From Candidatus Bathyarchaeota archaeon (GTDB lineage Archaea; Thermoproteota; Bathyarchaeia; Bathyarchaeales; Bathycorpusculaceae), in assembly GCA_963720565.1 (NCBI GenBank), contig CAVRFW010000005.1, positions 192,001 through 256,000 on the forward strand: DNA of 64,000 bases. The letters are read 5' to 3'. A program made the position numbers and the translations under genes. Each line of letters starts with the position of its first letter. Position 1 is the stretch's first letter. This document shows positions 33,752 to 45,826 of the stretch, piece by piece. Under the pieces are notes generated by a model that saw only the letters and a program-made list of their open reading frames with translations, was not told where the DNA came from and did no database searches.

Positions 33752-33934
33752 TAATATAAGTTGATTGCTGTGAAAAAAGGTGAATTACACGCCCGTAAAC
33801 ATGTGTAGAGGTCAAATAAAAAGCGCTGGACAGACCACCACTACCAAAGCCGTTTTTTCTACAAACGATATGGACCTCTACCTTTTCGTGCTCACCTGCA
33901 CGCGTTAACAGCACGGCAAGGGAACTGCAGTGAG
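33752..33934 (+). promoter_or_regulatory. Promoter and structured leader of the glutamate-synthase operon
   Basis: TAATATAAG at 33752-33760; perfect 9-bp GTAGAGGTC/GACCTCTAC pair; segments complementary to the GTG start. Confidence 0.5.
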
Positions 33935-34373
33935 AAGAATAATCGCCAAAGAAGAATTATGCATGGGTTGTGGTCTCTGCGAGGTATACTGCACTGTCCA
34001 GCACTCTAAGACAAAAGATGTAGTAAAGACTTACAATAAGGAAAAGCCCAGGCCTATCAGTAGGGTAAGGCTTGAAGTAAATAGACCTGTTAGCTTCGCC
34101 GCACAATGCCGCCACTGCGAAGATGCTTCCTGCGTTACTGCTTGCCTATCTGGAGCCATGACAAAAGACGAAAAAACTGGTATGATTATGCATGACCCAG
34201 AGAAGTGTATAGGTTGCTGGACCTGCGTTATGGTGTGCCCCTACGGTGCCATCAAAATGGACATTAACAAGAAAATCGTGGCGAAATGTGACTTATGCTC
34301 CGAACTAGAGGTTCCAGCATGCGTTGCCAACTGCCCCAACGGAGCATTAGTGATCAAAGAGGTGAAGCGCTAA
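33930..34373 (+). CDS. 4Fe-4S dicluster ferredoxin-like protein
   Basis: CMGCGLC..C, CRHCEDASC, CIGCWTCVMVCP, KCDLC..C..CP. Confidence 0.93.
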   Translation: MRRIIAKEELCMGCGLCEVYCTVQHSKTKDVVKTYNKEKPRPISRVRLEVNRPVSFAAQCRHCEDASCVTACLSGAMTKDEKTGMIMHDPEKCIGCWTCVMVCPYGAIKMDINKKIVAKCDLCSELEVPACVANCPNGALVIKEVKR

Positions 34374-35647
34374 TGTCAAAATATGTGATTATCGGCGCCT
34401 CAGCAGCAGGTATCGGCGCAGTAGAAGCCATAAGAGAAGTAGATTCATCAGGCACTATAGTGGTTATTTCTGAAGAACAATACCCTCACTATTCTCGCCC
34501 TATGATTTCGGACTTCGTCAGCGGCAAAGCCAATATAGAGAAGATCAAATTTAGAAAGGACGACTTCTGGGAAAGCATTGGCGCCCAAATTTTGACATGC
34601 AGAACTGCAATAGCTCTAAACCTGACTGACAAGTCAGTTACGCTCGATAAAGGCGACAGAATTGGCTTCGAAAAGCTTCTAATCGCCACGGGCGGAAAAC
34701 CATTCGTGCCCAAAATAGAAGGTGCAGATAAAGCCGGCGTATTCACATTTACATCCATATCTGACGCGGAGCAGGTGGCAAAAAAGCTCGAAACAGCCAA
34801 AGCAGCGGTTGTCATCGGCGCAGGCCTCATTGGCATCAGCGTCACTGAAGCCTTGGTAAAACAAGGAGTCAAAGTAACCGTCGTAGAACTGCAAGACAAA
34901 ATTCTGAGTCTGCTGCTTGACCCAAAGGGTTCAGACATCGTTGAAAGCGTTATCAAAAGATCAGGTGTTACAATAATCACAAGCCAGTCTGTTCAACGAA
35001 TAGTAGGAAAGCCAGAAGATGACAAGACAGTAGGCGGAGTAATGCTGACAAAAGGCGATCAGATACCCTGCGACTTGGTGATTTTCGCCATAGGAGTCAC
35101 CCCACGCACCGAGATAGTCTCAAGAACCGATGTGAAAACAAACCGGGGCATAATAGTCGACAATCTCATGCAAACAAACGTTCCAGACGTTTACGCTGGA
35201 GGCGACGTTGCAGAAACATACGATTTCATCCTAAACCAAAACCGCCAGCTACCACTTTGGCCACTTGCTGTATTGGAAGGCCGAGCTGCAGGCTTCAACA
35301 TGGCCGGCAAAAAAACCAGCTACATGGGAGGCACCAGCATGAGCGCACTGAAGTACTTCGACATACCTGTCATCTCATGTGGTATCACCAACCCAAAAGA
35401 AAGCGGCACCTTTGAAATCTTAACCCTGGAAGACCCCGCAAGAAGCATTTACAAAAAACTCGTGCTCAAAGACAACATAATCGTGGGCATGATCCTCTTG
35501 AATGATATTGAAAGGGCGGGGATATTGTTCCAACTAATGAAAAAGCGTGAAAACGTTAAGAAAATCAAGCATGAGCTTCTCCAAGAAGACTTCGGACTTG
35601 CCACTCTACCCCTGTCCATGAGAAAGAAAGTCTACTCGGGGGAATGA
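34373..35647 (+). CDS. FAD-dependent NAD(P)H oxidoreductase (NADH-oxidase/NirB-N-like)
   Basis: IIGASAAG, LIATGG, VIGAGLIG, VYAGGD; start at ATG 34373. Confidence 0.9.
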   Translation: MSKYVIIGASAAGIGAVEAIREVDSSGTIVVISEEQYPHYSRPMISDFVSGKANIEKIKFRKDDFWESIGAQILTCRTAIALNLTDKSVTLDKGDRIGFEKLLIATGGKPFVPKIEGADKAGVFTFTSISDAEQVAKKLETAKAAVVIGAGLIGISVTEALVKQGVKVTVVELQDKILSLLLDPKGSDIVESVIKRSGVTIITSQSVQRIVGKPEDDKTVGGVMLTKGDQIPCDLVIFAIGVTPRTEIVSRTDVKTNRGIIVDNLMQTNVPDVYAGGDVAETYDFILNQNRQLPLWPLAVLEGRAAGFNMAGKKTSYMGGTSMSALKYFDIPVISCGITNPKESGTFEILTLEDPARSIYKKLVLKDNIIVGMILLNDIERAGILFQLMKKRENVKKIKHELLQEDFGLATLPLSMRKKVYSGE

Positions 35648-36780
35648 AAATGCGAACCCCAACCAAAACAAACAACCTATACAACGACGACAAGGACTTC
35701 GATGGCTGCAGCATATTCGGCATGATGAACCTCGAAGGCAACCGTTTCTCATCACGCGACCCAGTCCGAGCGATAGCAAACATGCACGACAGGGGAAACG
35801 GGTTAGGCGGCGGTTTCGCAATCTACGGCGTCTACCCTGCTTTCAAGGACTACTATGCTTTCCACATACTGTACTTAAGCAGAGAAGCTAAGGACAGAAC
35901 TGACAGAACACTAGCTGCGGCTTTTAACATAATCTACGATGAAGAGATGCAAACCCAACCCGCCAACGTGAAGGACCCCCCTCTAGTGTGGAGATACTTT
36001 GTCCAACCCAAAAAACGACAACTGGGAAGTAATACAGAAGACGATTATGTAGCCAAAAAAGTTATGCGAATAAACACAGAAACGGGGAAAGCCTTTGTCT
36101 TTTCAAGCGGCAAAAACATGGGCGTCTTCAAAGGTGTTGGCTACCCCGAGGATATAGCAGACTTCTTCTGTCTGGAGGATTATCAGGGCTACCTGTGGAC
36201 TGTTCATGGAAGATTCCCAACAAACACCCCCGGCTGGTGGGGAGGCGCACATCCATTCAACATACTGGATTGGACAGTCGTTCACAACGGAGAACTATCT
36301 TCCTACGGTATCAACAAACGGTACTTGGAAATGTACGGCTACAAATGCACCATGCAAACAGACACCGAAGTCCTGGCTTATGCCGTAGATTTGCTTATGC
36401 GAAGGCAGCACTTGCCTATTGACTTAGTGGCAAACATTCTAGCTGCGCCGTTGTGGAGTGAGATAGACACAATGGCGCCTGAAAAGCAAACTCTTCACAA
36501 GGTTCTCCGTCAGACCTACGGCAGCCTGTTGATGAACGGTCCTTTCAGCATTATTTTGGCACATCATGGAGAGATGATTGGATTAACTGACAGAATTAAA
36601 CTGCGCCCCTTAGTTGCGGGAACTAGAGGCGACTTTCTATACTTATCCTCTGAGGAAGCAGCAATGCGGCTTGTTTCGCCAATTTTGGATAGGTTTTGGT
36701 ATCCTCGTGGCGGCGAACCGGTGGTCGGGAGACTCCACATCAAATCCAACTCTGTAGCTCCAGCAAACGCGGAGACGTGA
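35644..36780 (+). CDS. Glutamate synthase glutamine amidotransferase subunit (GltB1-like)
   Basis: DG-CSIFG nucleophile, DRGNGLGGG, HGRFPTNT, VHNGE, TDTE, DRIKLRP. Confidence 0.9.
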   Translation: MKMRTPTKTNNLYNDDKDFDGCSIFGMMNLEGNRFSSRDPVRAIANMHDRGNGLGGGFAIYGVYPAFKDYYAFHILYLSREAKDRTDRTLAAAFNIIYDEEMQTQPANVKDPPLVWRYFVQPKKRQLGSNTEDDYVAKKVMRINTETGKAFVFSSGKNMGVFKGVGYPEDIADFFCLEDYQGYLWTVHGRFPTNTPGWWGGAHPFNILDWTVVHNGELSSYGINKRYLEMYGYKCTMQTDTEVLAYAVDLLMRRQHLPIDLVANILAAPLWSEIDTMAPEKQTLHKVLRQTYGSLLMNGPFSIILAHHGEMIGLTDRIKLRPLVAGTRGDFLYLSSEEAAMRLVSPILDRFWYPRGGEPVVGRLHIKSNSVAPANAET

Positions 36781-36783
36781 TAG

Positions 36784-38295
36784 ATGAAGACGTATTTGAT
36801 GCCCGAATATCTTGTTGACCGGGACAAGGAAAGATGCATTCGCTGCAAAGTGTGTGTAAATCAATGCACGTATGAAACACACAGCTACGATAGAGAAGAG
36901 GATGTCATCTGCAGCAAAGATGAAAACTGCGTCAACTGTCAACGCTGCGTTACCCTGTGTCCAACACATGCTATTACCATACGGAAGAACCCGAATGTTA
37001 ACCGCGAGAATTCCAATTGGACATACGAAGTGATCCGTGACTTGAAGAGACAGGCGGAATCTGGTGGCGTCATATTGACAGGTATGGGGTGCGATAAACC
37101 CCACTTCACCTATTGGGATCGCCTTGTGTTAAATGCCAGTCAGGTTACGAACCCTTCGATTGACCCGTTGCGGGAGCCAATGGAGATTAGGACTTTCTTA
37201 GGCGCGAAACCGGATGAATTAATCATAGAGCAAGAGAATGGTGCAATGGTGCTGAAGACCGAACTTGCGCCGCAGTTGTGTTTGGATACTCCGATCATGT
37301 TTTCAGCGATGTCTTATGGGGCCGTTAGCTTGAACGTGCACGAAGCACTGGCGCGCGCCGCAACTGAATGCGGGACATACTTCAATAGCGGTGAGGGAGG
37401 CCTAGACAAGAGCCTATACAAGTACAGCGCTCACGCGATTGTTCAGGTAGCCTCAGGTAGATTCGGGGTTCACCCAAAATACCTAGATAACAGCGCTGCC
37501 ATCGAAATAAAAATTGGCCAAGGCGCAAAGCCGGGGATTGGCGGGCATCTGCCCGGCGAGAAAGTGACCGAGGATATTGCTCGCACACGTATGATTCCAA
37601 CTGGCACAGATGCACTCTCACCAGCACCCCAACACGACATTTATTCGATAGAAGATCTCAGACAATTGATTTATGCGTTAAAAGAAGCTACCAATTACTC
37701 AAAACCCGTGTCGGTAAAAATCGCCGCCGTCCATAACGTAGCTGCGATTGCTAGCGGAATGGTTCGCGCTGGCGCGGATATCATAGCAATAGACGGAATA
37801 CGAGGCGCAACCGGAGCAGCACCGAAGGTAATCCGAGATAACGTGGGGATACCAATTGAACTGGCTGTCGCACAGGTAGACCAGCGTTTGCGTGATGAAG
37901 GCATACGAAACAAAGCATCTCTCATTGCAGCCGGCGGCATAAGAGGCAGCTCGGACATCGTCAAAGCAATCGCGCTGGGCGCTGACGCAGTCTACATAGC
38001 TACTGCCGCCCTTGTAGCCATTGGCTGCACCGTTTGCCAGCGCTGCTATACAGGAAAATGTCCCTGGGGCATCGCCACTAGCGATCCATGGATTTCTAAG
38101 AGGATTAACCCTAACATCGCTGCAGAGCGACTGGTGAATTTGCTACGGGGCTGGAGCTTGGAAATCACGGACATAATGGGCGGTATGGGAATTAACGCTA
38201 TTGAGAGTCTACGCGGCAACCGCTTAGCATTACGCGGAGTAGGGCTAACTGATAATGAGCTTAAAATCTTAGGTGTAAAAGCAGCTGGAGAATAG
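36784..38295 (+). CDS. Glutamate synthase FMN-binding subunit with N-terminal ferredoxin (GltB2-like)
   Basis: AMSYGA, SGEGG, QVASGRFG, KIGQGAKPGIGGHLPG, HDIYSIEDL, C..C..C...C. Confidence 0.95.
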   Translation: MKTYLMPEYLVDRDKERCIRCKVCVNQCTYETHSYDREEDVICSKDENCVNCQRCVTLCPTHAITIRKNPNVNRENSNWTYEVIRDLKRQAESGGVILTGMGCDKPHFTYWDRLVLNASQVTNPSIDPLREPMEIRTFLGAKPDELIIEQENGAMVLKTELAPQLCLDTPIMFSAMSYGAVSLNVHEALARAATECGTYFNSGEGGLDKSLYKYSAHAIVQVASGRFGVHPKYLDNSAAIEIKIGQGAKPGIGGHLPGEKVTEDIARTRMIPTGTDALSPAPQHDIYSIEDLRQLIYALKEATNYSKPVSVKIAAVHNVAAIASGMVRAGADIIAIDGIRGATGAAPKVIRDNVGIPIELAVAQVDQRLRDEGIRNKASLIAAGGIRGSSDIVKAIALGADAVYIATAALVAIGCTVCQRCYTGKCPWGIATSDPWISKRINPNIAAERLVNLLRGWSLEITDIMGGMGINAIESLRGNRLALRGVGLTDNELKILGVKAAGE

Positions 38296-38302
38296 AAAAG
38301 AC

Positions 38303-39109
38303 ATGATTGAACAAGAAAAGATTGATGCAGGAACATATTTGCAACTGCATTCACCCCATGCGAAAATGAAAAATCACGTGTGGAGAGTTGATGCAGACGG
38401 AATGCACTACAAAGACCTTAACAGTCTTCTAAGAACGATTGTCAGCAAAGGCGCTGAGCGAGTTGAGATCCGCAATGTCTGCGGGCAAAGATACATAGGA
38501 ACCGACTTGGAAACCGATAGTCAAATTGATATCTATGGGACTCCCGGAAACGACTTGGGCGCATTCATGAATGGTCCAAAATTGGTAGTTCATGGAAACG
38601 TACAGGAAGGCTGTGGCAACACGATGAATGAGGGACAAATCATAGTTCATGGTAATGCCGGAGACATCACTGGGCACTCGATGCGTGGAGGAAGCATCTT
38701 CATTCGTGATGATGTTGGGTATCGCGTCGGTATTCACATGAAGGAGTATCACCGCAAGAAACCGAAAATAGTGATTGGCGGTGCTGCACAGGACTTCTTG
38801 GCTGAGTATATGGCAGGGGGCATTGTTCTTGTGCTTGGTTTGACCTTATCCAAAGGCGAGCGATCCAAGGCACGATTTGTCGGCACCGGTATGCACGGCG
38901 GGGTCATTTACGAACGAGGCGACATTATGGAAACAAGCAAAGGCACCAAGTTAATGAAAATCGGAAAGCGCGATACCCGTGTAATTGAAAACCTCGTTGG
39001 GGAATACTGCAATCACTTCGGTCTTAAACGAGAAGAAATCATGAATTGCCAATTCTACAAGATAGTATCCGTTTCCAAGAGACCGTACGAAAACTTGTAC
39101 TCAAATTAG
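38303..39109 (+). CDS. Glutamate synthase GXGXG-domain subunit (GltB3-like)
   Basis: GQRYIG, GTPGNDLGAFM, EYMAGG, GTGMHGG beta-helix repeats. Confidence 0.92.
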   Translation: MIEQEKIDAGTYLQLHSPHAKMKNHVWRVDADGMHYKDLNSLLRTIVSKGAERVEIRNVCGQRYIGTDLETDSQIDIYGTPGNDLGAFMNGPKLVVHGNVQEGCGNTMNEGQIIVHGNAGDITGHSMRGGSIFIRDDVGYRVGIHMKEYHRKKPKIVIGGAAQDFLAEYMAGGIVLVLGLTLSKGERSKARFVGTGMHGGVIYERGDIMETSKGTKLMKIGKRDTRVIENLVGEYCNHFGLKREEIMNCQFYKIVSVSKRPYENLYSN

Positions 39110-39132: not shown

Positions 39133-40206
39133 TTAATGCTTTTGTTCACGAAGTATTCGCGGAACGTAAGCGCACTGGGGATCAGAACCGAAAATATCAC
39201 CTGTATAAAAGAACGCTGAAGTTCGGCATCCGCCACAAATTTCCCGATACTCGCATACACCACATTTACCTTTAAGCTCACTCTTGTTTCGGATTTTCCC
39301 GAAAAACTCTGAAGACTGCATTTCATTCCAGATACTACTAACTGGTTTGACTTTGACGTTTCCAAGCCTGTAAACATCATTGAAACTACATGGGATAACG
39401 TCACCGTTTTCAGAAATACTCATGAACTTGCCAAAGAAACACCTGCCCAAGAAGAAGTGATTATACCAGTTGTCGAAATCCGGCATTCCTCTTTGCTTCG
39501 CCACACGTGCATAAGATGGATAGTAAACGTTGATGGCGGGTTTTTCCTTGTACACTGACTGTAAATCATAGAGCGCGTTCCATGCCCACTCGTTCTGTTG
39601 AGCTGAAGGAGCAGTTTTAAGACGATATTCATCTTTGCTGTGTGGAATAAAACCGTGATAAATCACCCATCTCGCGGAAAATTTCGCCGCCAAATCAAGC
39701 ACATGGGTGAAATCGCCGGTGTTAACATTCGTGATTGACTCGCTAAAGTTGGCAAAAGTGTAAACGAGACAGTTTAGTAATCCCTCGCGTGAAAGTCTCT
39801 CAATCGCTGAGACCGCGTAACTGTAAGTTCCCTTTCCCCGAATCAAGTCGTTTGTGGTTTCGGCGCCGTCAATACTGATGGAAACCCGAACCTCATTCTT
39901 GACAATATTCTCAAACGCGTCAGCATCTAACAGACGCCCATCAGTAATAATGCTGGTGTTTAAACCGATTTTCCGAGCATATGCTAAAATTTTGAAAAGA
40001 TCTTTTCTTAACAAGGCTTCTCCGCCAGTGACTCCGAAAAAACTCGCTCCAAAATCGTATGCCTGATCAACAATCCGCATGGCTTCTGCTGTATTCACTT
40101 CATCCGGGAAAGCAGGTTTCAACGCTGATGCACAATGTACACAGTTGCTGTCGCAGGCAAAGGTACACCGCCAAGGCATAATATACAAAGGCCCTTTTTC
40201 CTTCAA
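39133..40206 (-). CDS. Radical SAM protein with SPASM domain
   Basis: CDSNCVHC, TGGE, ISIDG; C-terminal C..GDVIPC..CGVC.....CGGCR..DPQC. Confidence 0.92.
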   Translation of the reverse strand: MKEKGPLYIMPWRCTFACDSNCVHCASALKPAFPDEVNTAEAMRIVDQAYDFGASFFGVTGGEALLRKDLFKILAYARKIGLNTSIITDGRLLDADAFENIVKNEVRVSISIDGAETTNDLIRGKGTYSYAVSAIERLSREGLLNCLVYTFANFSESITNVNTGDFTHVLDLAAKFSARWVIYHGFIPHSKDEYRLKTAPSAQQNEWAWNALYDLQSVYKEKPAINVYYPSYARVAKQRGMPDFDNWYNHFFLGRCFFGKFMSISENGDVIPCSFNDVYRLGNVKVKPVSSIWNEMQSSEFFGKIRNKSELKGKCGVCEYREICGGCRTSAFFYTGDIFGSDPQCAYVPRILREQKH

Positions 40207-40291
40207 GAAATCCTTCTCCGATAGCCTTGCAATGGTTTACTCAAGACACTTGTTTCCCTATTTAACCTTCACCTAACCCCGAAGAGCAGAA

Positions 40292-40501
40292 ATGAAACAA
40301 TCGAGAGCGAACCCTCACACTCGAATCGATGAGGCAACACCAGCGGAAAAGTACGCGGGGCAGTTCTTTGAGCACGCTCGCGTCCACGGTTCGCTCGCAA
40401 ACAGCACTCTTGGTCGGATGAACTATATCCGTGGGAATTCTATCGCTGAAGACTTATTGAACATCATAAGAGACGCTGAACAGACAACAGGTGAACAGTA
40501 A
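40292..40501 (+). CDS. Possible small hypothetical protein (69 aa)
   Basis: ORF fills the gap between rSAM and cgi121; no recognisable motif. Confidence 0.3.
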   Translation: MKQSRANPHTRIDEATPAEKYAGQFFEHARVHGSLANSTLGRMNYIRGNSIAEDLLNIIRDAEQTTGEQ

Positions 40502-40553
40502 GGCTTAAGCGCACAGGTTTTCAAATATTTCGTCTTGTCGCAGGAGCATTAGG

Positions 40554-41120
40554 TTGCTTAAGTACATTGAAGAAGATGGAAGATACGTAGAAATCACTGG
40601 TTTTAGAAACATCAGCATCGGAGACCCTGCAGGATTCGTAAAGTCACTTCTTGCGGAGAAGCAGCAGGACATTTGCGTTCAATTCTTCAACGCGAAACTA
40701 GTGGCTACTTGGGAACACCTGTACTTCGCAGCGATAAACGCGCTACTGGCTTACCGCAACAAACGCAACATCTCCAAAACCCTGGCAATGGAAACCATGA
40801 TTTACGCCTCTGGTCAGCGCCAAATCCGAAAAGCTATAGCGCTATTGGGTGTTAAATCAAGCTCTGCAAATATCGCAACAATAATAATTAGCGACAAACC
40901 AGACTCAGTCCAAAAGGCGCTGTCAGCAATTAGGAAGCATATCTGCGCTGAGCCAGATGAGACAGTTCTCGAGTTGACCGAAGACAAAATGCGCGGCATA
41001 TGCAAAAGCTTCAGCATAACTGAGAAAGAGCTGGAGGCAGTAACGAAGAAAAATGACAATAGGCAAGCCATGGTTGACCTCATCATAGAAAGGATGGCTT
41101 TGCTTCAGACCCAGACTTAA
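40554..41120 (+). CDS. cgi121: KEOPS complex subunit Cgi121
   Basis: HLYFAA.NA, ISKTLAME...YASGQRQI.KAI...G. Confidence 0.9.
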   Translation: MLKYIEEDGRYVEITGFRNISIGDPAGFVKSLLAEKQQDICVQFFNAKLVATWEHLYFAAINALLAYRNKRNISKTLAMETMIYASGQRQIRKAIALLGVKSSSANIATIIISDKPDSVQKALSAIRKHICAEPDETVLELTEDKMRGICKSFSITEKELEAVTKKNDNRQAMVDLIIERMALLQTQT

Positions 41121-41123
41121 GTG

Positions 41124-41651
41124 CTAAAGCATTTTTTCTTTGAGAACAGATATGATGCTGCTCGGTTTTATGAGCGACATGCCCGTAATTCCCCCGAGCA
41201 CTTCAATTAGCAGAACCTTGTCGGGATTATCCAAGTCTGCCTTCCTCTCTATACTATTAGCTGCAGCTTCGATGAAGTCTCGCGAATGCAAACTGGTGAA
41301 CCGTTTTTCAATTGTTACTCTGAAGGTTTCGTTCTCGGCTATGTTTGCTGCAAGTTCAATCGCCACCTTTCTTACCTCATCCAAATTTGTGGCCAAAACC
41401 CTTTCAATCGGTATAATCCTGAGCGCATAGCGGAACTCGTAGGGACGATCCTGCAGAATGCCGCGGAATTTCTCTATGACCTCGCATGGGTCTAAGCTTG
41501 TTTTCGCTGCAACCAACCCTCTAATCCCAGTCTTGGCAACAACTGGTGCTGGATCACCAACCAGCTCTTTGAGTAAGTAGCTCAATTCTGAGCACATTTG
41601 TCTCTCATTTCCACGTGAGGTCGAAACTAGCAGGTTAAAATCCCTTATCAA
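41124..41651 (-). CDS. THUMP-domain RNA-binding protein
   Basis: TFRVTIEKR, ADLDNPDKVLLIEV. Confidence 0.88.
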   Translation of the reverse strand: MIRDFNLLVSTSRGNERQMCSELSYLLKELVGDPAPVVAKTGIRGLVAAKTSLDPCEVIEKFRGILQDRPYEFRYALRIIPIERVLATNLDEVRKVAIELAANIAENETFRVTIEKRFTSLHSRDFIEAAANSIERKADLDNPDKVLLIEVLGGITGMSLIKPSSIISVLKEKML

Positions 41652-41681
41652 ATACTCAGCTCCTATGTCGGTTAGCTCTAA

Positions 41682-41748
41682 GGGTCAGTGTAGGTATATG
41701 GCTTTTCTCACAGCTCTTGGGCTCGAAGCCGTCGCCTCACATCATCCC
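41682..41748 (-). ncRNA. C/D-box guide sRNA
   Basis: GGG-ATGATGT (box C) ... TCGA (D') ... GTGAGAA (C'-like) ... CTGA-CCC (box D); ~67 nt with terminal stem; D' guide GGCGACGGCT. Confidence 0.72.
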
Positions 41749-42189
41749 AGAAGAAGAATCGGTAACGGCTGATTTATCCATTTTGCTGTGCTCGCCTTGG
41801 TTTGCATTCAAAATGAACTACCCCTGTTTATTAATATCTGAAGGGCGAATTTAATTCTTCAACACCGTAAACAATTGATTGTTTTCCAAGAATCTGTTGC
41901 AACTTGACTGACAAAAGAAAAGACTATTCCAAACTGGAAAATACTAAGAGGCTGTCAAAACTGGTTTTAGCAAGCACAAAGCGGGCGAACGGTTGCCGGC
42001 AATGCAACCGAGGTTGTTTCATTACTAAGAACTGCGATTCCGAATTGTGTTTTGAGAAGAAGACAACAGAAAGACATCGAGTTTCCATGACTTTTTCTGC
42101 TGGACTTCGACATTTGACGAATAATAATGTTTAAACCATCGCAGACTAAGCTACACTAACACCGAGTTCTATGTGGAGGTGGAAAAAAA

Positions 42190-42255
42190 ATGGTGTTTGA
42201 AGAAGAAGAATGGGAAGAGAGTGAAGATGAAGAGTGGGAAGAAGAAGAATGGTAG
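42190..42255 (+). CDS. Acidic Glu/Trp micropeptide MVFEEEEWEESEDEEWEEEEW (21 aa)
   Basis: TATA TTTAAA 42130-42135, SD GGAGGTGG 42175-42182, ATG 42190, TAG 42253-42255, oligo-T terminator; synonymous GAA/GAG mix. Confidence 0.75.
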   Translation: MVFEEEEWEESEDEEWEEEEW

Positions 42256-42274
42256 TTGACTTTGCGCAATAGCG

Positions 42275-42293
42275 TTTTTTTGCGTTTTTCTTT
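42275..42293 (+). terminator. Oligo-T terminator of the micropeptide gene
   Basis: T7-GCG-T5-C-T3 about 20 nt after the stop. Confidence 0.55.
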
Positions 42294-42390
42294 ATCAAGT
42301 ATTTGCTGCTTGTTTTAGCGTCATTTTTGGGTTGTTTTCAGCGTCCATGTTTATAACCAAGCTATTTTCATTATTGAGGTTGAGTTTGTC

Positions 42391-44178
42391 ATGACCCGTA
42401 TTGCTGTATTGGATGCCGACAGGTGCAAAGTGAAGAAGTGTGACCACCCTTGCGTCAGTTTCTGCCCGATGGTTCGAAGCCGAGTGGAAGCAATACGAGT
42501 TGAAGGAGGCAAAGCTGTTATCTCGGAAATGCTTTGCAGCGGTTGTGGCATCTGTGTCAAAAAATGTCCTTTCAAGGCCATCAGCATCGTGAACTTACCT
42601 GATGAATTGGAAAAGGATTGCAGTCACCGTTTTGGACAGAACGCTTTCAAGCTTTTCAGGTTGCCCACGCCTTCACCAGGAACAGTCTTAGGCTTGCTGG
42701 GGCAGAATGGCATAGGCAAAACTACCACCCTCAAAATTCTTTCAGGCGAATACAAGCCCAACTTGGGAGAACATGACAACCCCCCTCAATGGGACGAGAT
42801 AGTCCAGTACTTCAGAGGCTCATCGCTTCAAGACTATTTCCTCAAAATGAGTCAGAACAACCTCAAAATCGCCCATAAACCCCAATATGTCGACAAAATT
42901 CCAAAAGCAGTTTCAGGCAAAGTGGGTGATCTCCTCGAAAAAGTGGATGAGAGACACCTAGCAGACAAACTCATTCTCGATCTTGAACTCTCAACGGTCC
43001 TAGACCGCACCTTAGACGTGCTTAGCGGAGGAGAGCTACAGCGCGTGGCGGTCGCCGCTGCCCTGTGCCGAGAGGCAGACGTATACCTTTTCGACGAACC
43101 GTCCAGCTACTTAGATGTGAAGCAACGACTACAAGTTGCAAAAGCTATTCGAAGCTTGAAGGATTACCAAAAAACAATAATCGTTGCAGAACACGACCTG
43201 GCCATAATCGATTACATGTCAGATCAAATATGTGTCTTCTACGGAGAACCAGCCGTATACGGGGTCGTTAGTCATGTCCACGGCGTTCGAACAGGCATAA
43301 ACATTTACCTTCAAGGATACATTCCCGACGAAAACATAATGTTCCGAAAAGAACCCATTGTTTTCCACGAAAAGCCTCCAGTTGTAACAGCAAGCACAGG
43401 CGAAACCCTGCTAAAATGGAGCCAGATGGAAAAAACGTTCAAAGGCTTCAAGCTCGCCGTCAAACAAGGAGAGATAAAACGTAGCGAAATAATTGGGATT
43501 TTGGGTCCCAACGGGATTGGAAAAACCACTTTCGTAAAGATACTTGCAGGAATCGAAAAATCCGACGAGGAGCAGCAAATTGGAGAGTTATCTGTAAGTT
43601 ACAAACCCCAATACATAGCAGCAGATTACGACGGTACCGTCCAGGAACTGCTCATGAGCGTTGCCAAAGAGAACTATGCATCAAGCTGGTACAAAACCGA
43701 AATTCTCAATCCGCTGAAGGTCAACACTCTTCTAGACAGAAATGTGATGGAGCTCAGCGGCGGAGAACTGCAAAAAATTGCGATAGCAGCGTGCCTAAGC
43801 CGCAAAGCAGACTTGTTCCTGCTTGATGAACCAAGCGCTTACTTAGATGTTGAGGAAAGACTGAACATGGCGAAAACAATTCGACGCGTGGTTGAAGCAC
43901 ATGGTGTAACCGCCTTCGTAGTTGAACATGACGTTGTAACTCAGGACTTCATCGCTGACAGCCTCATGGTTTTCAGCGGAGAACCAGGAATAAAAGGCGA
44001 AGCGAATCCTCCTGTGAGTCTGAGGAAAGGCATGAACTTTTTCCTTAAGGAAATGAATGTTACTTTCCGAAGAGATACAGCTACCAGACGCCCCAGAGTT
44101 AACAAAGAAAACTCAAAAATGGACATTTTTCAAAAAGAGATTGGCGAATACTACTACACACGCCTCAGCCAAAAATAA
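42391..44178 (+). CDS. rli: Ribosome recycling ATPase ABCE1 (RLI)
   Basis: N-terminal Fe-S cysteines, two GxNGIGKTT P-loops, two LSGGELQ, DEPS. Confidence 0.98.
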   Translation: MTRIAVLDADRCKVKKCDHPCVSFCPMVRSRVEAIRVEGGKAVISEMLCSGCGICVKKCPFKAISIVNLPDELEKDCSHRFGQNAFKLFRLPTPSPGTVLGLLGQNGIGKTTTLKILSGEYKPNLGEHDNPPQWDEIVQYFRGSSLQDYFLKMSQNNLKIAHKPQYVDKIPKAVSGKVGDLLEKVDERHLADKLILDLELSTVLDRTLDVLSGGELQRVAVAAALCREADVYLFDEPSSYLDVKQRLQVAKAIRSLKDYQKTIIVAEHDLAIIDYMSDQICVFYGEPAVYGVVSHVHGVRTGINIYLQGYIPDENIMFRKEPIVFHEKPPVVTASTGETLLKWSQMEKTFKGFKLAVKQGEIKRSEIIGILGPNGIGKTTFVKILAGIEKSDEEQQIGELSVSYKPQYIAADYDGTVQELLMSVAKENYASSWYKTEILNPLKVNTLLDRNVMELSGGELQKIAIAACLSRKADLFLLDEPSAYLDVEERLNMAKTIRRVVEAHGVTAFVVEHDVVTQDFIADSLMVFSGEPGIKGEANPPVSLRKGMNFFLKEMNVTFRRDTATRRPRVNKENSKMDIFQKEIGEYYYTRLSQK

Positions 44179-44299
44179 AAATTTGCCATTTCTACAGTCG
44201 CAGCCATCTTCTAGAAGTGCAGTTAACTATAAGAAATAGGCACTAATATATCGTAGGCGAACCAAAGATGAGAAAGGACTAAACTGGTGGAAGCTATAA

Positions 44300-45826
44300 G
44301 TGGCACAAGCAACCTTCGAGGAAATAAGCGCATCCGACTTCTTCTACCGAAACCGCGACATCGCCGGCTTCACCAATCCATCAAGAGCCATATTCGCCGC
44401 TATACGCGAGCTAGTAGAGAATTCTCTAGACGCAGCAGAAAGCCAAAGAATTCCGCCAGATATCTACGTGCGCCTATCTTTTGAGGGTGAAGCAACCAAA
44501 GACACTCAAATTTACAAACTCCGAGTTGAAGATAATGGTTCAGGAATCCAGCCCAGATTCATTCCGTCAGCTTTCGGACAGGTTCTTTACGGTTCCAAGT
44601 ACAAACTGAAGCAGATGCGGGGAACCTTCGGCTTAGGCGGAAAAATGGCCGTCTTATACGGGCAGATAACGACGCATCAGGCTGCATTTGTTACATCCAG
44701 CACAGGTCAAGCCAAGGTTTACACGTTCAAATTAATGATTGACATTCAACGTAACCGTCCCATAATCCTCGACAGGAAGGTACTCATAAACAAGGAGCAA
44801 TGGCGCGGAACCATAGTGGAATTCACGCTTGAAGGCGACTATCTGCGCGCCATGCCAAAGATTTTGGAGTATTTCAAGCAGACCGCCATGGTGAACCCTT
44901 ACGCGAATCTCACATTTGTAGACCCAAAAGGTAGACTCTACAAGTTTGTTAGAGCAACAACAGAAATGCCTGCACCACCTAAGGAAACACTGCCACACCC
45001 CTACGGTGTGGACGTTGAACTCCTTCAACGACTCATCCAGATAACTCCTTACAAGACTATGGCTGAATTCTTGAAGCACCATTTTCACAGAGTAGGCGAG
45101 ATAACAGCGCAGAAATTCCTAGCGTTCAGCGAGTTAAGTCCATCAAAAAATCCAAAGAAACTTGCTCACGAAGAAATCGTCAGACTAATGCAAAACCTGA
45201 AAAAGTATAAAGAGTTTTTGCCCCCTGACGCAAGTTGCCTCTCTCCTCTTGGCGAAGACCTACTCCGGGCAGGAATAACGAAGGAGTTGAACCCCGAGTA
45301 CTTGGTTGTTCATCAACGCAAACCCTCAACCTACGCTGGTCATCCCTTCATAATAGAGGTAGGCATAGCCTACGGGGGAGAAATTCCAAAGAGAGGCAGC
45401 TTTGTCATTTATCGCTTTGCCAACAGAATCCCTCTGCTTTACGATGAGGCAAGCGATGTTTCCTTTAGAGTAATAACTGCAATGAACTGGAGAAGGTACA
45501 AGGTTTCCCCTGACATGCCCATCGCCATTGTTGTTCACATTTGCAGCACAAAAGTCCCATACAAGACCGTGGGCAAAGAGTTTATCGCTGACAGACCGGA
45601 AGTCAGGCGTGAAATAGCCAACGAGTTGCGCGAAGTCGCCCGTCAGCTTCAACACTTTCTATCCAAGCGTGAACACGTTGACAAGGAAAGGAAACGACTC
45701 AGCATTTTTGCCAAGTACTTGCCTAAAATCGCGCAATTTTCATCCATGCTTGCCGGGAAAGATCGCCTTCCCGATGTTGACAAATTAATCAAGAGCGTGC
45801 AAAAATATGGAGCAGAAGAAAAGTAA
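44300..45826 (+). CDS. top6B: DNA topoisomerase VI subunit B
   Basis: RELVENSLDA, EDNGSG, RGTFGLG, RFANRIPLL, STKVPY. Confidence 0.98.
   Translation: MAQATFEEISASDFFYRNRDIAGFTNPSRAIFAAIRELVENSLDAAESQRIPPDIYVRLSFEGEATKDTQIYKLRVEDNGSGIQPRFIPSAFGQVLYGSKYKLKQMRGTFGLGGKMAVLYGQITTHQAAFVTSSTGQAKVYTFKLMIDIQRNRPIILDRKVLINKEQWRGTIVEFTLEGDYLRAMPKILEYFKQTAMVNPYANLTFVDPKGRLYKFVRATTEMPAPPKETLPHPYGVDVELLQRLIQITPYKTMAEFLKHHFHRVGEITAQKFLAFSELSPSKNPKKLAHEEIVRLMQNLKKYKEFLPPDASCLSPLGEDLLRAGITKELNPEYLVVHQRKPSTYAGHPFIIEVGIAYGGEIPKRGSFVIYRFANRIPLLYDEASDVSFRVITAMNWRRYKVSPDMPIAIVVHICSTKVPYKTVGKEFIADRPEVRREIANELREVARQLQHFLSKREHVDKERKRLSIFAKYLPKIAQFSSMLAGKDRLPDVDKLIKSVQKYGAEEK

Follow-up and report, generated by a model that had tools for sequence, protein, structure and literature searches.

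Immediately upstream of the gene for the ribosome-recycling ATPase ABCE1, the genome of a Candidatus Bathyarchaeota archaeon carries a separate gene for a 21-residue peptide rich in Glu and Trp. The gene was found in a stretch of 64,000 nucleotides, hereafter called the window, and the analysis confirms that it is a real, self-contained cassette consisting of an operator-like palindrome, a TATA box, a Shine-Dalgarno (SD) sequence, an ORF and a T-rich terminator (Table 1). Judged by comparison of sequences, it is also confirmed as one member of a real, undescribed and widely kept microprotein family of a single archaeal phylum.

Table 1. Features of the microprotein gene and of the neighbouring ABCE1 gene, with positions in the window
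Feature	Position	Strand	Basis or remark
Inverted repeat TTCGACA-NN-TGACGAA, probable transcription-factor site	42106..42121	+	8 nt 5' of the TATA box; role inferred
Archaeal TATA box TTTAAA	42130..42135	+	Sequence; conserved columns in a 13-locus alignment
Shine-Dalgarno sequence GGAGGTGG	42175..42182	+	7 nt 5' of the ATG
Glu/Asp/Trp microprotein ORF, 21 aa, TAG stop	42190..42255	+	Translation; orthologues
Terminator-like T-rich tract, T7-GCG-T5CTTT	42275..42293	+	Function inferred
ABCE1's own TATA box TTTATAA	42350..42356	+	Conserved about 40 nt 5' of the ABCE1 start (alignment)
ABCE1/Rli1 ribosome-recycling ATPase, 595 aa, candidate partner	42391..44178	+	Pfam ABC_tran and Fer4_RLI

All the elements claimed in a preliminary description of this DNA, namely the TATA box, the SD, the 21-residue acidic ORF with three EEW units, the oligo-T tract and the TTTATAA of ABCE1, are present in the sequence. 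The inverted repeat falls just beyond the coordinates given in that description, which does not mention it. In addition, an A-rich, BRE-like stretch lies just 5' of the TTTAAA, and transcription of the microprotein gene would start near 42160. The peptide contains 13 Glu, one Asp and three Trp among its 21 residues and ends in Trp; it has neither Lys nor Arg and would thus escape trypsin-based proteomics. Pfam identifies the surroundings in the window as an archaeal housekeeping cluster (Cgi121, THUMP, ABCE1, Top6B, Top6A and IF2). A search of window positions 40000-44500 against Rfam gave no matches, and a sigma-70 promoter scan, with a model unsuited to archaea, stayed at chance level. Two other features of the window were seen. 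A C/D-box-like small RNA (41682-41748, minus strand) with GGG...CCC ends, an ATGATG box C and a CTGA box D lies upstream of the THUMP gene; similar stretches occur near ABCE1 in L024 and L029, and the candidate had neither an Rfam match nor a convincing target in the genome. A cluster that by eye resembles glutamate synthase (33930-39109, plus strand) precedes the Glu-rich ORF by 3-8 kb, and in relatives it is not a recurrent neighbour of the peptide gene.

To judge the coding status of the ORF we used orthologues that were located via ABCE1 and not via the peptide. We searched 41 genomes of the order and fetched 30 ABCE1 loci; 23 of these, the window's own counted, have an orthologous ORF directly upstream of ABCE1. 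One of the seven loci without an adjoining ORF lies on a contig that is too short; among the six remaining genomes, four (G001, G020, G026 and G040) carry the peptide gene or pattern matches elsewhere, and no peptide gene was found in the other two, both of family f5 (0/2). It should be underlined that only ORFs with at least 50% Asp/Glu and one Trp were kept, so that the composition of the 23 orthologues is partly given by construction. They encode 15-29 residues, and each has an SD of the form GAGGTG or GGGGTG 3-10 nt 5' of the start codon as well as a T-rich tract (a 10-mer with at least seven T, no more than 60 nt past the stop). The preliminary description had named loss of the frame or of the Trp spacing in relatives as the observation that would speak against the gene. 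The orthologues keep the frame, and 20 of the 23 have a terminal Trp, preceded in every case by Glu or Asp; peptide copies usually end W-E4-W.

That description had also argued for coding from the mixing of synonymous codons. In the window copy this mixing is slight (11 GAA and 2 GAG), so that the coding argument rests on the relatives, whose codons do bear it out: the 23 orthologues together use GAA 247 times, GAG 79, GAC 22, GAT 21 and TGG 72 times, begin with ATG (13), TTG (6) or GTG (4) and stop with TAA (12), TGA (6) or TAG (5). Since synonymous codons, starts and stops vary around a fixed amino-acid pattern, selection appears to act on the peptide and not on a DNA repeat. Moreover, the real 2.09-Mb genome has two frames of 12-60 residues with at least 55% Asp/Glu and at least two Trp, and each of eight triplet shuffles had none; on these zeros and the codon use of the orthologues, a microsatellite or a chance reading was rejected. 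With conservation of this coding type, the gene is almost certainly translated into a stable peptide. RNA-seq contigs at one orthologue, L264, show the stretch in 20 RNA runs of 10 studies, and the ORF and the ABCE1 start were covered in 4/4 RNA runs, the contigs carrying no strand, start or level; one RNA run without cover just upstream proves nothing.

Two further short acidic ORFs were noted. A second Glu/Asp/Trp micro-ORF of 20 residues in the window's genome (L031 6553-6615, minus strand, corresponding to G000:C2 near 76614) has a GAGGTG SD and a terminal Trp, is more diverged, follows a MarC-like gene (by eye) and is without the palindrome. The other (L032 4809-4886, minus strand) encodes four Cys in CxxC-like spacing and has a T-tract behind it and no clear SD.

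The promoter region likewise appears to belong to the peptide gene itself. A palindrome with at most two mismatches stands 76-94 nt 5' of the start codon in 126 of 213 non-redundant loci; the Thermoprotei loci and some Bathyarchaeia lack it. As it adjoins the BRE/TATA, we read it as a transcription-factor site, and its distribution suggests that this site is probably specific to the peptide gene. In three of the five related genomes searched the exact palindrome occurs once, at the peptide gene, and copies of the gene that have been relocated keep the palindrome, the SD and the terminator. A palindrome regulon was thus not found, the peptide promoter being the only site in those three of five genomes and the window's genome having one other strong site. 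This other match, at G000:C2 9697 (L032 about 3698), lies between convergent GNAT-like genes (by eye) and may be a chance hairpin. The T-rich tract is also kept in copies that do not adjoin ABCE1 (L034 and L035), and ABCE1 retains its TATA box in loci that the peptide gene has left (L004 and L007).

Pattern searches showed that the gene extends far beyond the order. Of 301 genomes searched in the class, 81 matched a strict pattern, including 64 of the 77 that belong to the window's family; the reversed control matched in three genomes. A looser pattern was matched by 124 of 401 phylum genomes, and its control by about 16. Of 40 hand-picked phylum matches that were inspected, 35 are stand-alone Glu/Asp/Trp genes in 19 families; the five that were dropped comprised three without such an ORF (one at a contig end) and two zinc-finger tails. 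When named genomes were scanned with the strict pattern, at least 119 stretches were obtained, mostly from Bathyarchaeia, which also hold the named records whose peptides closely resemble that of the window. Beyond Bathyarchaeia, the matches listed include Thermoprotei, with Ignisphaera, Pyrodictium, Hyperthermus, Thermogladius, Desulfurococcaceae and Fervidicoccaceae, and none among them is labelled Asgard or Euryarchaeota. Family f53, which would be Sulfolobaceae, has the gene in 5/5 genomes searched, in four of them just before ABCE1. With patterns the peptide was not found in families f39 (0/63) and f48 (0/13). A divergent version lies upstream of 10 of 28 ABCE1 genes, mostly from pattern-negative families, and a loose tail pattern applied to five 'negative' genomes yielded one true copy (G328, unlinked) and five chance matches, so the pattern tallies undercount the family. 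Across the family the peptide varies from 15 to 57 residues by repeating units, and about 90% of its residues are Glu, Asp or Trp. Some genomes have extra unlinked copies, G040 having four pattern matches.

Some findings of these scans concern other proteins. Zinc-finger proteins of 60-75 residues with acidic, mostly Trp-bearing tails (L256 2981-3202, L257 3000-3200 and L314-L326) occur in the Bathyarchaeia families f24, f21 and f18, where the free peptide was not found. The zinc finger was matched in 9/9 genomes of these families and in 10/35 genomes overall, and the tailed proteins lie mostly beside an ABC-transporter-like operon, not beside ABCE1; their Pfam matches are weak (AN1-, B-box- and HIT-like) and under the cut-off. 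A viral scan gave two matches, neither of them a clear member of the peptide family. Viral contig L310 has a short Glu/Trp-rich ORF at 44-106 with an SD and no terminal Trp, preceding a large ORF that by eye resembles a head-maturation protein. With regard to ABCE1 itself, two of two genomes of family f34 (G086 and G158, 93-94% complete) had no ABCE1 match at E <= 1e-40, which is odd for an essential gene, and in L308 (343-3120) ABCE1 lies in an open frame of 925 codons, perhaps with an intein.

To compare gene order we used 80 named loci with flanks of up to 4 kb, mostly from related genomes; 78 of them contained the ORF. In 61 of these 78 loci the gene that follows is ABCE1 and in nine it comes after inserted genes, the peptide gene lying upstream on the same strand in 70; of the rest, one is divergent, six show no ABCE1 when the three closest ORFs are considered and one is too short. 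With three more divergent cases in family f40, the peptide gene points away from ABCE1 in four loci, L125, L244, L245 and L246. The prevailing same-strand, upstream position, with a gap to ABCE1 of only about 45-60 nt in f53, favours a sensor ORF acting in cis, in which ribosomes pausing on or dropping off the acidic run would control read-through past the T-tract into ABCE1 and so provide feedback on recycling capacity. We nevertheless consider this improbable. The four divergent loci, the inserted genes and the relocated copies with intact sequence stand against it, as does ABCE1's own TATA box, conserved in the window's family; RNA folding of two window stretches, carried out for the window's genome only, gave z scores of -1.47 and -0.39 and so no significant sign of an attenuator, and a sensor of this kind would need no fixed terminal Trp.

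Known leader peptides differ from the gene in the same respects. Ribosomes pause on the acidic residues of MgtL-type leader peptides, and the ABC-F protein EttA acts there, according to PMC11282234. The peptide gene shares with them a short acidic ORF before a gene, but has its own terminator, a separate ABCE1 promoter and divergent and unlinked copies. A leader peptide or attenuator that is obligately on the same strand before a promoterless gene is ruled out by the divergent, displaced and unlinked copies and by the TATA box of ABCE1, and an attenuator sensing Trp or Glu is ruled out because the gene that follows does not belong to an amino-acid pathway. Since a leader peptide cannot work from the opposite strand or from another locus, and since divergent, displaced, duplicated and unlinked copies exist while ABCE1 has its own TATA box, we conclude that the peptide probably acts in trans. 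A cis role is possible in the lineages with the 45-60-nt gap, and we do not favour it.

Next to the question of how the peptide acts stands that of its partner. Among 35 peptide-selected loci from 19 families, in which neighbours other than those checked with Pfam were named by eye, 19 loci from 10 families have ABCE1 no more than 1.4 kb away. It is the commonest neighbour tested, followed by FBPase and a PRT-like gene (five families each), TFS and S17e (four each) and THUMP (three), a comparison in which kin are not independent and the other neighbours are harder to detect than ABCE1. In nine of the 19 families no sampled copy has ABCE1 within 3 kb. On gene order, the case for ABCE1 or its ribosome complex as the target seems to us evenly balanced.

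We tentatively propose, by analogy, that the product is a free acidic, Trp-bearing ligand of ABCE1 or of its ribosome complex, working like the tail of the stalk protein aP1 or the N-terminal arm of eIF3j. As a disordered polyanionic peptide with regularly spaced Trp, made from its own promoter, it would serve as a short-linear-motif ligand in trans: its Trp residues would dock in a hydrophobic pocket, its acidic runs would steer it to a basic surface, and this docking surface would most likely lie on ABCE1 or the ABCE1-ribosome complex. Binding would then tune recycling or the release of ABCE1, and the palindrome would regulate the peptide gene. The acidic-tail mimic tuning ribosome recycling that was suggested earlier is thus retained in part, as the gene order fits a free trans-acting peptide, whereas ABCE1 is a candidate partner. 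When a 35-residue orthologue and its own ABCE1, both as alignments, were submitted to complex prediction, the score was 0.00 against a mark of 0.32, in a run whose controls were not folded and which therefore speaks neither for nor against the pairing.

Two known ligands of ABCE1 serve as models for this proposal. In PMC6125642, an 18-mer C-terminal peptide of aP1 suffices for binding NBD1 of ABCE1 (Kd 3.9 uM), the contacts being made by L103, L106 and F107 on one face of a helix. In aP1, which is anchored on the ribosome, hydrophobic residues close an acidic run, whereas our peptide is acidic with an aromatic end and has Trp usually five residues apart. Five aP1 proteins, one of them encoded by this genome, carry the L-x-x-L-F(-G) motif, which the peptides lack; Pfam family PF00428 (Ribosomal_60s) is absent from the three peptides searched, and the genome's normal aP1 is a separate gene. 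The peptide is therefore not aP1, and the likeness to stalk tails drawn in the preliminary description holds loosely, for the acidic and aromatic character, but not for L-x-x-L-F, the motif with which the stalk binds ABCE1.

The second model is eIF3j/Hcr1. PMC7780240 states that the eIF3j N-terminus and the aP1 tail share a multivalent patch on ABCE1, that this N-terminus reaches into the NBD cleft of ABCE1 and that eIF3j aids splitting; PMC2824034 describes an acidic N-terminal motif whose conserved Trp docks in a hydrophobic pocket, the binding shown being to the eIF3b-RRM and not to ABCE1. An acidic motif with a conserved Trp is what the peptide shares with eIF3j, as far as these sources describe it. 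eIF3j is large and contains a dimeric six-helix bundle, whereas the peptide is the whole gene and has no folded domain. A 21-residue ORF without the helical-bundle domain or the C-terminal mRNA-channel tail rules out that the peptide is eIF3j, and homology is not demonstrable from such low-complexity sequence. A more speculative extension of the analogy, which we regard as doubtful, is that archaea have in the peptide a free-standing counterpart, and possibly a forerunner, of the acidic Trp arm of eIF3j. It would be a dedicated cofactor whose gene is under operator control and which enters the NBD cleft of ABCE1 and times splitting or 30S release. To our knowledge, archaea are without eIF3, and if this reading were true we know of no earlier non-ribosomal modulator of ABCE1 in archaea. 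On the forerunner reading, the peptide would be absent from reconstituted systems because its gene is unannotated.

It is unlikely, though it deserves weight, that the trans-acting peptide has a partner other than ABCE1, such as EF-2 or TFS/RNA polymerase, or that it is a nucleic-acid mimic or a chaperone for basic (ribosomal or chromatin) proteins. Adjacency to ABCE1 may be inherited, since the gene lies in a conserved housekeeping cluster (THUMP, Cgi121, TFS, S17e, FBPase, Top6 and IF2). A composition of about nine-tenths Glu, Asp and Trp in a chain that lengthens by repeats suits avidity rather than one pocket, and the gene is unlinked to ABCE1 in many families, with extra unlinked copies; in L223 and L224 it and an EF-2-like gene are convergent, and a TFS-like gene is nearby in 4/19 families. 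ABCE1, on the other hand, is a neighbour in more families than any other gene tested, and the near-fixed terminal Trp (20/23) suggests a specific pocket, not charge alone. The two convergent copies belong to family f69 (L223 2986-3150 and L224 2056-2208), and a second acidic, Trp-bearing ORF lies at L223 5608-5706 on the other side of the EF-2-like gene. As ABCE1 is universal and the patterns used did not find the peptide in f39, f48 and f5, the peptide is not a core recycling factor in those families.

The terminal Trp raises another possibility, namely that it brings Fe-S assembly proteins to the FeS domain of ABCE1, as Lto1 does in eukaryotes. A terminal Trp after an acidic residue provides two of the three positions of the CIA targeting signal [LIM]-[DES]-[WF]-COO-. 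We regard this adaptor role as very unlikely, given that the third-last residue is Glu in 188 and Asp in six of 194 Trp-ended copies (a pattern-biased set) and never Leu, Ile or Met. Moreover, proteins of PF01883, which we take to be the Cia2/DUF59 family, do not track the peptide in five genomes: in a search confined to PF01883, four of the five had such proteins, among them a genome in which no peptide was found, whereas none turned up in the assembly of the window, which is 89% complete. In PMC10245660, Rli1 depends on the Trp-ended adaptor Lto1, so that the ABCE1/Rli1 link is shared together with the Trp, but the signal is described there as eukaryote-specific and is reported absent from archaeal homologues of CIA clients. 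The acidic third-last residue of all 194 Trp-ended copies rules out that the peptide is itself a CIA signal; it also has no adaptor domain.

That the peptide is a RiPP precursor, as had been offered as an alternative, or a substrate of a neighbouring asparaginase-2/isoaspartyl peptidase is scarcely credible. In Bathyarchaeia an Asparaginase_2 gene usually adjoins upstream, and it accompanies the peptide gene in G001 and G026; the window also has a radical SAM/SPASM gene at a distance of 2 kb. Against this, asparaginase was found beside none of the 35 peptide-selected loci and is not beside the window's copy, the peptide is without a leader/core layout, and the 45 largest neighbour clusters contain (by eye) no radical SAM or other RiPP enzyme. 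With no recurrent modifying enzyme among these clusters, the RiPP alternative is not supported.

The peptide itself had no match in Pfam, NCBIfam or the PDB, and none of ten exact peptides was present among about 15 billion proteins (0/10), a search in which the choice of start codon may matter. A homologue search with a 45-residue orthologue returned 1766 candidates, none at E <= 10, a result that we ascribe to low complexity and not to absence. The ESM Atlas holds one 35-residue relative letter for letter; the best matches in the Atlas, at 0.78-0.79, are hypothetical proteins and leads only. The expectation that standard gene callers would miss the gene is therefore mostly borne out, by the ten peptides, though not by this relative. 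The family is not described in the literature that we found, and supplementary tables of small ORFs or transcription starts in archaeal transcriptome and proteome studies may list the ORF.

Some of the lineages that carry the gene have been cultured and studied many times by RNA-seq, and the gene precedes a translation factor that ranks with the best studied, yet the family has no model. It marks a blind spot, in that profile searches do not score such low-complexity sequences. The conserved palindrome offers a handle on the condition that switches the peptide gene on. The peptide may play an overlooked part in protein synthesis, and if it does bind ABCE1, it would add a regulatory layer to ribosome recycling in archaea and bear on the origin of the eukaryotic cofactor eIF3j.
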